Shown here: piece after piece, positions 7,942-20,000 of the stretch | Position numbering within the stretch: position 1 is the stretch's first letter | Layout: every line of letters begins with the position of its first letter | IMG/VR virus record: IMGVR_UViG_3300042894_005760 | Direction: 5' to 3' (one strand) | Source of the DNA: an uncultured virus (IMG/VR IMGVR_UViG_3300042894_005760) | Taxonomy: Duplodnaviria; Heunggongvirae; Uroviricota; Caudoviricetes | DNA length: 20,000 nt | Made by a program: the position numbers and the translations under genes | The notes under the pieces: generated by a model | What the model saw: only the letters and a program-made list of their open reading frames with translations | What the model was told of the DNA's origin: nothing | Databases searched by the model: none

Positions 7942-9468
7942 ATGCTAGTAGAAACAAGTTATTTAACTAATACCAAAAAGCTGGTATGTAGTTATGTTGA
8001 CAAATCAGGAGAAATTAAATTAAAATACTATGATTGGGACACCCCAATGAAATATGTATCTTGTGAAGATACAGACCCACAAAAACATGCAGAATTCAAA
8101 TCTTGGGATGGTAAATCTGTAAAACAAATTGAAGTAAATCATCCAGATAGATATGCAATCTATGAGTTCTTAGATTCACTTCCTGAAAAAGAAAAAGATG
8201 AGATCTTTGAGTTTAACTTACCAAAGATATTCTTTATAGATATTGAAACAGAAATCGTTGATGGTTTCCCAGAAGCGGCAGATATTAAAGATGCTGATGG
8301 TAATGTTATAAAAGAAGGTGCATGTACACAAGTTCTTTCTATATCAATTGTTTATGATGATAAAATAATTCTTCTTGGTTTAAAAGATATGCCAGAAGAT
8401 ATGCAAAATAGAATTTGTGATAACACAAATAAATACTTTGAGAAATTTGGAACAGAATATAAGTTTAGATATGTTAAATACGAATCTGAATTTGATATGT
8501 TGTACGCTTTCTTTGAGAAAATGATTCCTAAGATGCCAATTTTAACTGGTTGGAACTTCTTAAACTATGACTGGGTTTATTTAGTAAATAGAAGTAGAAA
8601 GATTTCTAAATGGGCTAACGGAAAAGAATGGAAAATTGACCCAGCAGTTTCATCACCTTTAAAAAGAATAAATAAAATGTGGGGTACTGATTATGAAGTT
8701 CCTGCACATAGAATGATTTTTGATTATATGCAACTATATGAAATCTGTGATACTTCGATTAAAGTAAAAGAATCTTCTTCATTAGACTTCGTTGCCAATA
8801 AACTAGTTGGTGTTGAAAAGATTAAGTATAATGGTTCATTACAAAAACTTTATGAAGACGATTTTGAAACATTTATGTACTATAACGCGGTCGATTCCGT
8901 ACTTGTACAAAAAATACACGAGTCAAGAAACTATATTTCAATTATTTATGCGATTTCATCATTGGCAAAGATTAGAATTGTCGATGTAGTATCTCAAATG
9001 AATAACGCATTAGGTTCATTGGCGATTACCGAAGGTGTTTTAAGAAACAGATTTAGAGAAATGGACAACATTGTTCTTTTCAAAGATGAAAGAGGTGACG
9101 GAGAATCTACTATTGCAGGTGGTTGGGTTAAAGATCCTGTTGTAGGAATGAATAGATGGGTAGTTATTTATGACTTTGCCTCACTATATCCAACTACACA
9201 AAGACAATTCTTTATTGCACCAGAGACATTTGTTGGAGTTCAAGATGAGAAGAATAAAGGTTTCTGTGATAATGGTAGACCTATTGATGAAGAGAAACAC
9301 GTTGTTTGTGTAAATGGTGTGGTTTTTGAGAAAAGACTATCACCAACACTTAGAATGTTGGAAGATGTTTATGCTGACAGAAAGTATAATAAAGGAATTA
9401 TGATGAGAAAGAAAGACGAACTAAAAGAAGTCATGGATCAAATCAAAGAGCTTGAAGAATCACTATAA
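7942..9468 (+). CDS. Family B DNA polymerase, N-terminal subunit (3'-5' exonuclease plus motif A); split gp43A-like
   Basis: ExoI FIDIETE, ExoII TGWNFLNYD, ExoIII YNAVD, AGGWV..P and motif A YDFASLYP are present. The ORF ends in the fingers helix (RKYNKGIM...) without KxxxNSxYG or YGDTDS. Confidence 0.9.
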   Translation: MLVETSYLTNTKKLVCSYVDKSGEIKLKYYDWDTPMKYVSCEDTDPQKHAEFKSWDGKSVKQIEVNHPDRYAIYEFLDSLPEKEKDEIFEFNLPKIFFIDIETEIVDGFPEAADIKDADGNVIKEGACTQVLSISIVYDDKIILLGLKDMPEDMQNRICDNTNKYFEKFGTEYKFRYVKYESEFDMLYAFFEKMIPKMPILTGWNFLNYDWVYLVNRSRKISKWANGKEWKIDPAVSSPLKRINKMWGTDYEVPAHRMIFDYMQLYEICDTSIKVKESSSLDFVANKLVGVEKIKYNGSLQKLYEDDFETFMYYNAVDSVLVQKIHESRNYISIIYAISSLAKIRIVDVVSQMNNALGSLAITEGVLRNRFREMDNIVLFKDERGDGESTIAGGWVKDPVVGMNRWVVIYDFASLYPTTQRQFFIAPETFVGVQDEKNKGFCDNGRPIDEEKHVVCVNGVVFEKRLSPTLRMLEDVYADRKYNKGIMMRKKDELKEVMDQIKELEESL

Positions 9469-15644: not shown

Positions 15645-18194
15645 ATGAGCATGATAAAAGTAATGAAAAGAAATGGTAAGAAAGAGCCAGTCATGTTAGA
15701 CAAAATCTTAGACAGAATAACTCAACAAACTTATGGTTTAGACCAAAAGTGGATCGTTCCTTTCGAGGTTGCACAAAAGGTGATTGAAGGAATTATGCCA
15801 GATATTCAAACTTCTGTTTTAGATCAACTAGCAATGGAGACTGCAGCATCTCTTACAACAAAACACCCTGATTATTCAACATTAGCGGCAAGATTAGCAA
15901 TTACGGCATTACACAAAGAAACTAAGAAAAGTTTTTCAGAAACTGTTTCTGATTTATACAAATACGTAGATCCAAAAACTAGAAAACACTCACCGATTGT
16001 TTCTAAAACTTTCTATGATATTGTAAAAAAACACGCAGATGAATTAGACTCTGCAATTGTACACTCCAGAGATCATAACTTTGACTACTTTGGATTCAAA
16101 ACATTAGAAAAATCATATCTATTGAAACTTGACGGCAAAGTTGCCGAAAGACCTCAATATATGTATATGAGAACAGCACTACAAGTTTGTGGTGAAGACA
16201 TACAAGGTGTTATCGATACTTATAACTTACTTTCAGAAGGTTATTACACACACGCTACACCAACATTATTCAACTCTGGAACAACAAGACCTCAATTATC
16301 TTCTTGTTTCTTACTTGATACAGAATCAGATTCTATTGAAGGTATTTTCAATACTTTAAAAGAATCCGCACAGATTTCTAAAAACGCTGGTGGTATTGGT
16401 ATTTCTTTTACAAAAGTAAGAGCAAAAGGTACTTATATCGCAGGAACTAATGGTACTTCAAATGGTATCATTCCTTTCTTAAAAATCTTCAATGAAACTG
16501 CAAGAGCAGTAGACCAAGGTGGTGGGAAAAGAAAAGGTTCAATTGCAATTTATATGGAACCTTGGCACGCTGATATTATGGACTTCCTAGATTTAAGAAA
16601 AAACCAAGGTAAAGATGAAATCAGAGCTAGAGATTTATTCTTAGCTATGTGGACTAATGATTTATTCATGGAAAGAGTTGACTTAGACGAAGATTGGTAT
16701 TTAATGTGTCCACACGAATGTCCAGGTTTAACTGAAACTTACGGTCAAGAATTTAGAGATTTATACATTGGTTATGAATCAGAAGGAAGATTTAAAAGAG
16801 TAGTTAAAGCTAGAGAAGTATGGAATAAAATCTTAGAATCTCAAATTGAAACTGGAACTCCTTATATCTTATATAAAGATTCTATCAACGAGAAGTCTAA
16901 TCAATCAAACATTGGTGTAGTTAGAAGTTCTAACTTATGTGCTGAGATTGTTGAAGCAACTGGAATTACTAAAGTTCAAAAAGAAATTCTTCAAAATAAA
17001 GAATTATTAGAAAGTTTAGGATTAGGTTCATTCTATGGTGAAGAATCAGTAAATGAAACTGCAGTTTGTAACTTAGCTTCTATTGCACTTCCTAAGTTTG
17101 TAAATAAAAACAAAACTTATAACCATAACAAGTTATTTGATGTTGCTTATCAAGCTACTATAAACTTAAATAAAGTTATTGATGTAAATTATTATCCATC
17201 AGAAGCAGCTAGATTCTCAAACTTATTACATAGACCAGTTGGTTTAGGTGTTCAAGGATTAGCAGACGTATTCTTTCTATTAGGAATTACTTATGATTCT
17301 GATGAAGCAAAATCATTAAACAAAGAGATTTTTGAAACTATTTATTATGCCTCAATTAAAGCTTCTTGTGATTTAGCTAAAGTAGAAGGTGCTTATCCAA
17401 CATTTAAAGGATCTCCAATTTCAGAAGGTAAATTCCAATTTGACTTATGGGGTACAAAACCAACAAAAAGATGGGATTGGGACAAATTAAGAGAGGACAT
17501 TAAAAAGTATGGAGTTAGAAACTCTTTAACTACTTGTATTATGCCAACAGCATCAACTGCATCTATCTTAGGAAACGAAGCAAGTTGTGAAGCTCAAACT
17601 TCAAATATGTACACAAGAGGTGTTTTATCTGGTACTTTTATCATTGTAAACAAATACCTTGTAAAAGAGTTAGTTAAATTAGGTATCTGGTCTGATAACA
17701 TTAGAAGAAAGATTATTGCCGAGAATGGTTCAGTTCAAAACATACCTGAAATTCCTACTAATGTAAAAGAAATCTTTAAAACTGTTTATGAGATTAAACA
17801 AAGAGACGTAATTGATATGGCTGCAGAAAGAGGAGCATTTATTGATCAAACTCAATCAATGAACATCTTTATGGATTCTCCAAACTTCGCAAAATTGACA
17901 GCAATGCACTTTTACGGATGGGGAAGAAGAGCTCTTATGAAAGATGAAAATGGTGTTGAAATTATCCCACAAGGAGAAAACACAGAAGTAATCTATGATA
18001 AATCAGGGAAACCAAGATTTTACAGAGAGAAGAAATCCGCTTTAAAAACTGGTATTTACTATCTAAGAAATAAAGCAGCAGGTGATGCAGTTAAATTCAC
18101 AACTCAAGAAGAAGTGAAATCTGCTGAAGACCAAATGGCAGAAATAGCATGCTCCTTGGATTCACCGGATGATTGCATTGCATGTGGCTCGTAA
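15645..18194 (+). CDS. nrdA: Class Ia ribonucleotide reductase alpha subunit with ATP cone
   Basis: ATP cone VMKRNGKKE, HATPTLFNSGT..QLSSCFL, GGKRKGS, catalytic SNLCAEI, VCNLAS, MPTASTA, LKTGIYYLR and C-terminal CIACGS. Confidence 0.97.
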   Translation: MSMIKVMKRNGKKEPVMLDKILDRITQQTYGLDQKWIVPFEVAQKVIEGIMPDIQTSVLDQLAMETAASLTTKHPDYSTLAARLAITALHKETKKSFSETVSDLYKYVDPKTRKHSPIVSKTFYDIVKKHADELDSAIVHSRDHNFDYFGFKTLEKSYLLKLDGKVAERPQYMYMRTALQVCGEDIQGVIDTYNLLSEGYYTHATPTLFNSGTTRPQLSSCFLLDTESDSIEGIFNTLKESAQISKNAGGIGISFTKVRAKGTYIAGTNGTSNGIIPFLKIFNETARAVDQGGGKRKGSIAIYMEPWHADIMDFLDLRKNQGKDEIRARDLFLAMWTNDLFMERVDLDEDWYLMCPHECPGLTETYGQEFRDLYIGYESEGRFKRVVKAREVWNKILESQIETGTPYILYKDSINEKSNQSNIGVVRSSNLCAEIVEATGITKVQKEILQNKELLESLGLGSFYGEESVNETAVCNLASIALPKFVNKNKTYNHNKLFDVAYQATINLNKVIDVNYYPSEAARFSNLLHRPVGLGVQGLADVFFLLGITYDSDEAKSLNKEIFETIYYASIKASCDLAKVEGAYPTFKGSPISEGKFQFDLWGTKPTKRWDWDKLREDIKKYGVRNSLTTCIMPTASTASILGNEASCEAQTSNMYTRGVLSGTFIIVNKYLVKELVKLGIWSDNIRRKIIAENGSVQNIPEIPTNVKEIFKTVYEIKQRDVIDMAAERGAFIDQTQSMNIFMDSPNFAKLTAMHFYGWGRRALMKDENGVEIIPQGENTEVIYDKSGKPRFYREKKSALKTGIYYLRNKAAGDAVKFTTQEEVKSAEDQMAEIACSLDSPDDCIACGS

Positions 18195-18226
18195 TCCCTG
18201 ATAATTGTTTAGTATGTGGTTCATAA
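18165..18226 (+). repeat. Diverged tandem 30-nt duplication of the nrdA 3' end
   Basis: 18165-18194 CCGGATGATTGCATTGCATGTGGCTCGTAA (PDDCIACGS*) versus 18197-18226 CCTGATAATTGTTTAGTATGTGGTTCATAA (PDNCLVCGS*), 22/30 nt identical. Confidence 0.85.
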
Positions 18227-18256: not shown

Positions 18257-18332
18257 ACTATAAAAAATCCACCTTGGAAAAAAGCGAAATTTTCAAGGTT
18301 ACTATATACATAAAATAAATTAAAAGAAATTA

Positions 18333-18358
18333 AAACTTTTTCTAATTTATAAATACAA
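18333..18358 (+). promoter_or_regulatory. Putative promoter of the ncRNA pair (AAAC-N16-ATACAA, overlapping TATAAATA)
   Basis: One-mismatch version of the middle-type motif, ending 6 nt before the first paired base of ncRNA 1. Confidence 0.5.
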
Positions 18359-18364
18359 TAATAC

Positions 18365-18435
18365 AATCAGTAGCAAATCTAACAGATACATCGAAATGGT
18401 ATTCAACAAAACTCTGTGGATAAATTACTCTGGTT
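18365..18435 (+). ncRNA. Putative Y RNA-like ncRNA 1 (71 nt)
   Basis: AATCAG(18365-70) pairs with CTGGTT(18430-35), followed by a bulged T, AG/CT, an internal loop and the ATCT-A-ACAGA/TCTGTGGAT helix. Lies upstream of Ro60 and shares its scaffold with ncRNA 2. Confidence 0.7.
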
Positions 18436-18451
18436 TTATTTATAAAAAAAC

Positions 18452-18677
18452 GCAAACATAGCAAAGTTCTAAGATACTTCGTATATTATACAACTATCAG
18501 AAAGAACGTATAGAGACGACTACTCTATGCTACCATGTAAGGGCATTAGCGCTTGCCTCTGGTCGAAAAGTCAGGAATTCATAAGTTTCCTTTAAAAATA
18601 TGAGTGAGATGTTGCTTTAAATATCGGCAAAGTTAAGTAGAATTCTTTGCGTCGCTTAGGCTAATATTCTTGTTTGC
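18452..18677 (+). ncRNA. Putative Y RNA-like ncRNA 2 (226 nt) with a multi-hairpin internal domain
   Basis: GCAAACA(18452-58) pairs with TGTTTGC(18671-77), followed by a bulged T, AG/CT and the AG-T-TCTAAG/CTTAGGCT helix. Five internal hairpins, GC-richer than its flanks, no long ORF, followed by a terminator. Confidence 0.72.
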
Positions 18678-18688
18678 TAAATTATAAT

Positions 18689-18728
18689 AAGACCAGATTT
18701 ACAGAAATGTAATTCTGGTCTTTTTTTT
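18689..18728 (+). terminator. Strong intrinsic terminator closing the ncRNA unit
   Basis: AAGACCAGATTTACA-GAAA-TGTAATTCTGGTC followed by T8. Confidence 0.9.
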
Positions 18729-18736
18729 ACAAAAAT

Positions 18737-18898
18737 ATGGAAATAGAAATAAAAACAAAATCTCTAAGTGAGATAGTAAAAAAATGTGAATCTCTAGGAT
18801 GGGATTTAAACAAAGTAAAAATAGAAACAAAGATATTCGAGGATTTATCTAATCCAGATGACTACTTTGTAAAAATGTATTTAAAAAATAAAAAATAA
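18737..18898 (+). CDS. Small hypothetical protein (53 aa, MEIEIKTKSLSEIVKKCESLGWDLNKVK...)
   Basis: Hand-translated ORF below the track cutoff, with an A-rich leader. Its stop lies 4 nt before the Ro60 start. Confidence 0.6.
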   Translation: MEIEIKTKSLSEIVKKCESLGWDLNKVKIETKIFEDLSNPDDYFVKMYLKNKK

Positions 18899-18902
18899 AA
18901 TT

Positions 18903-20000
18903 ATGTCAAAATTTAACACAACCGTAAAAGAACCAAAAACAAAAACTATAAACCTAGCAGGTGGTGAAGCTTATTCTCAAACAAATGAATTAGCTTTAGT
19001 ATCTATGTTACTAACTTCATTTGTGAATGATCAGTTCTACAAGTCTGGTAATGATACATTAAAAGATTTAAGAAGTTTGATTAAGAAAGTAGATCCTGAG
19101 TTTGCTGCGAAAGCTGCTATTTATGCCCGTGATAAATTTGGTATGAGAAGTATTACTCACGCTTTAGCTGGTGAATTGACATCAGAATTAAAAGGTAGTG
19201 AATTAGGTAAAAACTTCTATGACAAAGTTGTAGTTCGTGTTGATGATATGACTGAGATTATGTCATACTACTTAATGCACAAAACAAGTAAAGACAATCC
19301 AAAGTTCCCAAACTCTTTGAAAAAAGGATTTGCAAAAGCGTTTGATAAGTTTGATGCTTATCAATTAGCAAAATACTCTGGTAAAAACAAAGACCTTAAA
19401 TTAGTTGACTTGGTGAACATTGTACATCCAGTTCCAACTGATAGAAACAAAACTGCCTTAGAATTACTTGTTAAAGGTGATTTGAAAAACACTGAAACTT
19501 GGGAAGCTAAACTTTCTCAAGCAGGTCAAGTAGCGGAAAGTGAAGAAGATTTAACTCAATTAAAAGCTGATGCTTGGACTGATTTAATCACTTCAAGAAA
19601 AATTGGTTACTTTGCACTTCTTAGAAACCTAAGAAACATCTTAAATCAAGCTCCTAATGCAGTTCCTGCTGCTTGTGAATTGTTAGTAGATGAAAAGATG
19701 ATTAGTAAATCAAGAGTTTTACCTTTTAGATTTGCAACTGCTTATGAAGAAATCAGTAAAATGGGTTCTTCAAAAGAAGTTAGAGAAGTATTAGTTGCAA
19801 TAAACCAAGCTTTAGAAGTTTCAATGTGTAATGTTCCTAAGTTTGATGGTGATACATTAGTTGTTATGGACGTTTCTGGATCAATGAGTGGAAGACCATC
19901 TGAGATTGCATCATTATTTGGTGCGATTTTAGCAAAAGCTAACAATGCAGATGTTTTAACATTCGCAAATAGATCTGATTATAAGTCATACAATCCAATG
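18903..20000 (+). CDS. Ro60/TROVE-domain RNA-binding protein with vWA domain (3'-truncated by the window edge)
   Basis: Hand translation gives MSKFN...NLAGGEAY, AKAAIYARDKFGMRS, VRVDDMTE, LKKGFAKAFDKFDAYQLAKY, LVDLVNIVHP, TWEAKLS, GYFALLRNLRNI, SRVLPFRF and the vWA MIDAS motif VVMDVSGSM. Confidence 0.93.
   Translation, partial: MSKFNTTVKEPKTKTINLAGGEAYSQTNELALVSMLLTSFVNDQFYKSGNDTLKDLRSLIKKVDPEFAAKAAIYARDKFGMRSITHALAGELTSELKGSELGKNFYDKVVVRVDDMTEIMSYYLMHKTSKDNPKFPNSLKKGFAKAFDKFDAYQLAKYSGKNKDLKLVDLVNIVHPVPTDRNKTALELLVKGDLKNTETWEAKLSQAGQVAESEEDLTQLKADAWTDLITSRKIGYFALLRNLRNILNQAPNAVPAACELLVDEKMISKSRVLPFRFATAYEEISKMGSSKEVREVLVAINQALEVSMCNVPKFDGDTLVVMDVSGSMSGRPSEIASLFGAILAKANNADVLTFANRSDYKSYNPM

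Follow-up and report, generated by a model that had tools for sequence, protein, structure and literature searches.

The 20,000-nt stretch of viral DNA analysed in this study (the window) raises the question of what is done by a Y RNA that lies beside a phage Ro60 gene and carries a large insert without likeness to a tRNA. The window is AT-rich phage DNA encoding a split PolB, helicases, a class I ribonucleotide reductase and, at its end, Ro60, and its source was concluded to be a giant freshwater phage. The PolB ORF at 7942-9468 (508 aa) contains only the exonuclease and the start of the polymerase domain, as in a split polymerase. Moreover, a near-duplicate alternative ending lies at 18181-18225, after the ribonucleotide reductase gene end, as it does in L043, L046 and L070. 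The genes of interest are as follows:

18367-18433, plus strand: RNA 1, a short Y RNA with an RNA 2-type scaffold and a loop of about 22 nt; it shares repeat D3 with RNA 2.
18452-18677, plus strand: RNA 2, a Y RNA of the YrlA type, 5' of the intact phage Ro60 gene.
18903-20000, plus strand: Ro60/TROVE gene (PF05731, E 1e-20), which runs off the window; the protein has 482 aa in L001.

RNA 2 is separated from the PF05731 gene by 225 nt on the same strand. Between the terminator described below and Ro60, a 53-aa ORF (18737-18898) without a Pfam match is present in L043 and L044 and absent from L001, L002, L003 and L060. By sequence, the best structural relative of the window Ro60 is the Ro60 of phage phiLo (9L5Y/9KOP, E 7e-26). 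Relatives with 65-99% identity come from record LR745206 (634,780 bp) and from IMG/VR contigs, which reach 483 kb; huge phages of that size class have been predicted to infect Bacteroidetes (PMC7162821). Part of the stretch is contained in 24 sequencing runs from 17 studies. Among the four runs examined, three RNA libraries had contigs over the Y RNAs, and run X9 showed no cover over them. One 336-nt contig from a close relative corresponds to 18342-18677 and stops at the predicted 3' end of RNA 2, so that transcription of RNA 2 is hinted at by contigs that show neither strand nor true ends and cannot prove it.

According to the earlier note, the scaffold holds about 25 nt in RNA 1 and about 170 nt in RNA 2; this contrast holds, at about 22 and 170 nt. 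Folded by itself, the insert gave a z of -0.75 (46/200 shuffles equally good), and the full RNA (18452-18680) gave a z of -2.88 (1/200 shuffles equally good). The fold of the insert alone is not significant, and the support for a real and conserved insert comes from homologues. RNA 2 was recovered from 85 of 122 sequences, which comprised the window and 121 Ro60 loci, many of them truncated upstream of Ro60; 64 of the RNAs were distinct, with lengths of 204-320 nt, and all 85 had the same arrangement upstream of Ro60, with the short RNA 1 first and the long RNA 2 after it. Nine further distinct RNAs from LR745206 and a pattern scan enlarged the set to 73, in which the insert measured 151-266 nt (median 209). 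The comparison of homologues for which the earlier note had called revealed that the pairing is kept, while the sequence drifts and the number of knots varies. In the viral pattern matches (n=32), the full-length RNAs precede Ro60 save in L170, where no Ro60 was present within the 2.5 kb examined. Model R1 detected a single copy per record in two phage records and none in three bacterial assemblies, with 150 candidates scored per record or assembly, and no match was obtained in 16 genome_contigs loci (L156 left out). Furthermore, Rfam returned no match to RNA 2 for the window (up to E 5) and 10 loci, and ARAGORN none in the window.

The class of the RNA is indicated by its scaffold, which consists of two strands:

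18452-18481, plus strand: 5' strand with outer stem, bulge motif, inner stem and GAUAC-UUCG, from the fold and conserved in homologues.
18651-18677, plus strand: 3' strand, from the fold and, weakly, from the end of the RNA-library contig of the close relative at 18677.

A terminal stem joining the 5' and 3' ends and broken by an internal bulge is present in RNA 2 and its homologues. This stem, the bulge motif and G(A/U)UACUUCG are common to RNAs that bear a permuted tRNA module and lie at distant Ro60 genes, and one such scaffold RNA (L038) aligned to the YrlA model RF02553 with 52 bits, the gathering score being 69. On the strength of these common elements and the L038 alignment, the RNA 2 scaffold was equated with that described for YrlA/B by Chen et al. 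in 2014 and is predicted to be the Ro60-binding module. RNA 2 resembles YrlA/YrlB (RF02553; PMC4201824) in adjoining Ro60 on the same strand, in belonging to two tandem RNAs and in its stem-bulge-stem. After the inner stem, where YrlA has YUAY, a UAC-containing motif occurs in 73/73 RNAs, but it served as the extraction anchor, and the form G-A-U-A-C, found in 54/73, departs from YUAY. YrlA and YrlB measure 80-150 nt, against 204-320 nt for RNA 2, which lacks the T/acceptor/D module and the strict GNCGAAN0-1G and has a pseudoknot chain as its effector. The strict Rsr motif GNCGAAN0-1G was found in 0/73 RNA 2 sequences; the commonest form at its position is UAGCGAUAG (42/73), and the window has UAGCAAAG. 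A candidate internal Rsr site, GGUCGAAAAG at 18561-70, was rejected, as it is not kept in L003 or L044. With T-loop or D-arm motifs in 0/73 homologues, the description of the effector as large, conserved, structured and non-tRNA-like, on a Y-RNA scaffold beside Ro60, was borne out.

In distant Ro60 loci, the same scaffold bears the tRNA module of YrlA, and at other sites of two related genomes it likewise bears tRNA modules, which argues that the effector module is swappable. In these two near-complete relatives, the tRNA clusters include further scaffold RNAs, whose tRNA modules are laid out in several ways. L145 (G003) contains, at 62-210 and 876-1006, tRNA-shaped genes in which a circularly permuted Y-RNA scaffold replaces the anticodon arm. 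In L143, L146, L144 and L147, Y scaffolds with a permuted T-acceptor-D or an unpermuted D-anticodon-T module lie inside phage tRNA clusters, and ARAGORN labels some of them as tRNAs. By pattern, three genomes (G009, G010 and G011) have RNA 1 and RNA 2 only; as far as the pattern reaches, this disagrees with the statement that a tRNA-like Y RNA is found in every species.

As to the effector itself, comparison of homologues predicts that its 170 nt form a single-stranded track poor in G, followed by three H-type pseudoknots that abut one another and by a hairpin:

18482-18507, plus strand: G-poor, A/U-rich linker, presumably single-stranded from its base composition.
18508-18572, plus strand: pk1, with stem 1 (18508-15/18523-30), a crossing stem (18518-21/18569-72) and a variable hairpin (18532-63) inside.
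18573-18602, plus strand: pk3, with stem 1 (18573-77/18587-91), a crossing stem (18580-83/18599-602) and an A-rich loop.
18603-18625, plus strand: pk4, with stem 1 (18603-06/18613-16; two G-U pairs in the window) and a crossing stem (18608-12/18621-25).
18627-18650, plus strand: terminal hairpin of the effector, paired at 100%, with two-sided change in 3/6 pairs.

Each knot starts directly where the crossing stem of the preceding one ends. Over its first 22 nt in the 73 RNAs, the linker has A 0.50, U 0.30, C 0.14 and G 0.06, against 0.20 G overall, and part of it is paired in the RNAfold structure of the window RNA. All five complementary pairs listed in the earlier note lie at the coordinates given there. 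Its reading of them as serial hairpins stands for 18508-30 (stem 1 of pk1), 18541-58 (the variable hairpin in pk1) and 18627-50, and fails for 18577-605 and 18608-25, each of which is the second, crossing stem of a pseudoknot. The hairpin picture also missed the first stems of pk3 and pk4 and the crossing stem of pk1. Resemblances to RNase P, group I intron and preQ1 motifs that had been considered at first were lost once the pairings had been assigned. Beyond the close relatives, scaffold RNAs of 320-350 nt that seem to be knotted chains were observed at L119 (2266-2590), L250 (856-1205) and L262 (1041-1375), where Ro60 is 48-55% identical; these RNAs have no sequence likeness to RNA 2. In L250 and L262, an AUG-started frame of about 27 codons was seen by eye after the scaffold.

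The fold was assigned by eye on an alignment, and the helices were chosen on the same sequences that were used for the tests. In alignment A2 (26 sequences, 25 distinct, from subclades that keep pk3, with near-duplicates and three subclades left out), 92.7% of the positions were paired and both sides had changed in 14/25 pairs (0/500 shuffles; slid controls 40-51%), or in 8/9 when only crossing stems were counted. The pk3 crossing stem changed on both sides in 4/4 pairs; in pk4, stem 1 was 97% and the crossing stem 82.5% paired, with two-sided change in 2/4 and 4/5 pairs, respectively. A separate subclade (A4, 14 sequences) was 97.8% paired with two-sided change in 7/29, its count of pair types not exceeding that of shuffles. 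Another (A5, 11 sequences) has five abutting knots, 84.8% paired, with two-sided change in 19/40 pairs and one stem paired at only 60.6%. For the crossing stem of pk1, all three core positions pair in 69/73 RNAs, and 10/13 sequence types pair, against 15% cross-pairing, in a count for which the anchors of at least nine sequences were set by hand. Because kin share changes, the changes were also counted on a Ro60 tree built from the proteins of 65/73 RNAs (eight with fewer than 300 aa left out); the count omitted L007 for pk4 and eight pk3-less sequences for pk3, and used the five-knot subclade for pk1 only. On this tree, 13 partner pairs share 44/50 possible changes, against 148/470 (31%) for non-partners, and 0/20000 permutations reached 44/50. 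Three RNAs found after the model had been fixed (L226, L230 and L251) fit it by eye with new pairs. A loose pseudoknot finder scored shuffles alike for most of 26 RNAs. With a strict finder of abutting chains, tuned on the RNA 2 family, 9/19 RNAs beat all 60 shuffles, including the window, L226, L119 and L262; L012, L009, L230, L250 and L248 did not. Comparison establishes the scaffold, the fold, the variable number of knots and the position beside Ro60. The fold is well supported.

With free sequence, fixed pairing and a variable number of knots, the effector is best understood as a stable arm that is read by its shape, and not as a guide, a pocket or a message. The reading that we prefer, with a probability of about 0.5, places RNA 2 among the phage Y RNAs with a scaffold of the YrlA/YrlB class and has a knot chain take the place of the tRNA-like effector and tether Ro60 to an RNA-processing machine. 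Phage Ro60 would grip the terminal stem of RNA 2, and the abutting helices, stacked on one another, would make a rigid arm that resists nucleases. S1/OB-fold domains may then hold the track and the knots, which would link Ro60 to the machine as in RYPER, and selection would act on shape and repeat number rather than on sequence. A tether made of RNA predicts no direct contact between proteins. It has been reported that a Y RNA tethers Rsr to PNPase (PMC4201824), that the Ro60-Yrl of phiLo binds host PNPase and attenuates it in vitro (PMC12135203), and that S1 contacts the pseudoknot ring of tmRNA (PMC3968760). A partner with S1 domains is proposed since such domains are shared by PNPase, a known partner, and the phage's own RNA proteins; the PNPase of the host, as for phiLo, is one candidate, and RNase R (in the three closest relatives) and the phage bS1-like protein are the others. 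The Deinococcus radiodurans RYPER complex (Rsr-Yrn1-PNPase) has the same two-module logic, a Ro60-binding stem and an effector, but its Y RNA has another scaffold lineage and an effector bearing a T-arm. Thermus phage phiLo likewise has Ro60 with two Y-like RNAs upstream, Yrl1 and Yrl2 (PMC12135203; PDB 9KOP, 9L5Y). That paper describes the Yrls as consisting of one or two hairpins and nowhere uses the word pseudoknot in its main text, and, unlike phiLo, relatives of the window phage encode RNase R, SmpB and bS1. The earlier note had suggested that the domain recruits a different partner or acts as a decoy for host RNases. Recruitment of a different partner is plausible, and the knotted domain fits an inhibitor or a tether better than a cleavable bait.

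RNB was found in 8/19 records, including the three closest relatives, and in 3/6 near-complete genomes, and 2/2 proteins scored above the TIGR02063 cut-off for RNase R. RNase PH/PNPase domains and RtcB were each found in 0/5 relatives. With no RNase PH/PNPase domain found in the five relatives and RNase R missing from three of the six near-complete genomes, a universal nuclease partner, if any, would be that of the host. A Ro60-RNA 2 particle might instead trap a host 3'-5' exoribonuclease or a defence RNase on a substrate that cannot be unwound and thereby shield phage RNA. The slowing of host PNPase by phiLo Ro60-Yrl in vitro (PMC12135203) offers a precedent, a roadblock would suit the tolerance of knot number and sequence, and A, C and U predominate in the linker. 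However, no cleavage motif is kept, close relatives encode their own RNase R, and the 3' end of RNA 2 is buried in the scaffold stem, leaving no obvious entry for an exonuclease, so that we hold this trap to be unlikely, if worth keeping in mind.

SmpB is present in 7/7 near-complete or complete clade genomes (G003, G004, G009-G012 and W01; L280-L292, L322-L372), its C-terminal tail apparently intact in 5/5 as judged by tail motifs, and a bS1-like protein in 5/5 relatives. No tmRNA exceeded the Rfam cut-off in the SmpB-bearing genomes, the control having passed in 9/14 genomes, and ARAGORN with default settings found none in G011 or W01. RNA 2 shares with tmRNA (RF00023) a single-stranded, A-rich track, then serial pseudoknots in variable number, and a long closing stem. 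The track and knots might dock on bS1 and the 30S subunit, as a mimic of the tmRNA ring, and bring Ro60 to stalled ribosomes, with the phage SmpB, bS1 and RNase R taking part. This reading draws on the parallel layout and on the binding of the ring by S1 (PMC3968760), on the general presence of SmpB without a tmRNA above the cut-off, and on G011, which has SmpB, bS1 and both Y RNAs and is without a tRNA gene. On the other hand, RNA 2 scores nothing against RF00023 and lacks a tRNA-like domain with alanine identity, its track is not preceded by a pseudoknot, and it has no conserved tag frame; an AUG lies within 40 nt in only 36/73 RNAs, and the three frames in 64 RNAs span 1-75 codons without a shared end. 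Moreover, in G025 (82% complete), which encodes SmpB, no knot chain is present in any of the seven Y RNAs, and a host tmRNA may serve the phage SmpB. A split tmRNA completed by a tRNA-like acceptor Y RNA of the phage was rejected, since such an RNA is by pattern absent from 3/6 near-complete or complete genomes; with RNA 1 and RNA 2 only in G009-G011, a phage-encoded acceptor piece is not general. The two acceptor-like Y RNAs in L145, also tried as a split tmRNA, lack G3-U70 by eye. Ribosome docking was accordingly regarded as rather improbable. A wider version, in which huge phages grafted a tmRNA-like ring on a Ro60 stem, bS1, SmpB and RNase R perform quality control independent of tmRNA, and RNA 1 autoregulates Ro60, seems just as doubtful.

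The role of RNA 1 in such a scheme can be considered separately. RNA 1 is kept upstream of RNA 2 in relatives, and folded alone it gave a z of -0.8. A promoter-like motif at 18258-18275, 5' of RNA 1, is conserved in most relatives, and the RNA 1 loops of the window and relatives often have a GGA motif before an A-run. Two further elements frame RNA 2:

18429-18447, plus strand: 3' strand of RNA 1 and spacer, pairing with 18682-18697 in a helix that encloses RNA 2.
18686-18728, plus strand: terminator-like hairpin with a U-tract in the gap between the Y RNAs and Ro60 (inverted repeat I2), kept in relatives; a consensus scan did not pick it up.

The duplex of 18429-18447 with 18682-18697 has -16.2 kcal/mol in the window (0/100 shuffles). 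Across loci, the corresponding duplex averages -15.6 vs -6.5 kcal/mol, with 61/64 loci at 5/100 shuffles or fewer, and in the variant loci L020, L053 and L065 the strongest pairing is with the partner from the locus itself. It is a conserved, covarying helix that occurs also in distant Ro60 loci. Of 22 distant loci, 7 had no terminator call, and in 8 of the remaining 15 the best site was a Y RNA 3' strand, 4 of these 8 at 5/200 shuffles or fewer. In a pseudoknot-free model of the window, the enclosing helix is favoured while the terminator is incomplete (-78.4 vs -68.9 with the RNA 1 stem forced), and RNA 1 plus terminator once it is complete (-85.4 vs -82.7). The pairing suggests autoregulation of Ro60 by attenuation, with RNA 1 as the probable Ro60 sensor: binding of Ro60 to RNA 1 would free the terminator and shut off the Ro60 gene. 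A rival reading of the same helix is an RNase III-type processing stem.

The conserved helix that RNA 1 forms with the terminator encloses RNA 2, and this also raises the possibility that the knots are armour or a folding spacer, which would stabilise an RNA that titrates or gates Ro60, or set the timing within the attenuator. Knots pk2-4 of tmRNA act mainly in folding (PMC3968760), and Chen et al. considered that the tRNA module may protect against nucleases (PMC4201824). In distant loci, however, the helix encloses short or tRNA-like RNAs, which argues that the switch needs no knots, and 150-270 nt with a biased linker would be costly to keep for armour alone. This explanation was judged improbable, and slightly more so than docking on the ribosome.

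An antisense regulator, a small-peptide mRNA or a ligand-binding riboswitch formed the last group considered. About half of the RNAs have an AUG in the linker, but ORF lengths and ends are not conserved. The topology of pk3 resembles that of preQ1-I aptamers, and this was counted for a riboswitch; against it, the pk3 loop bases are freely replaced together with their partners, and there is no Rfam match. An antisense role is disfavoured, the helix and linker sequences drifting and only the composition of the linker being kept. The group as a whole is largely refuted and very improbable.

The bacterial Y RNAs described so far have effectors that are tRNA-like or a short hairpin and whose binding partners are largely open (PMC4201824). 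In the literature searched and Rfam, neither a Y RNA with a pseudoknot chain nor Ro60 attenuation was found, most subscription papers lying outside the scope of the search. The main text and six supplements of PMC10690425 contain no TROVE or Ro60, its other supplements or those of PMC5737381 could hold the motif unnamed, and the available parts of PMC7824862 and PMC11208441 mention TROVE proteins and nothing further.

In conclusion, RNA 2 is most readily explained as a tether between Ro60 and an RNA-processing machine, and its candidate partners RNase R, bS1 and SmpB are phage-encoded and expressible, which makes the question testable in vitro without a cultured host. If true, the Ro60-sensing attenuator would be a new route by which Ro60 sets its own level. 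Within one phage clade, the scaffold presents a natural swap series, with a loop only, with several tRNA layouts and with differing numbers of knots, and a Y RNA with an interchangeable knot chain would make the Y RNA scaffold a general adaptor.
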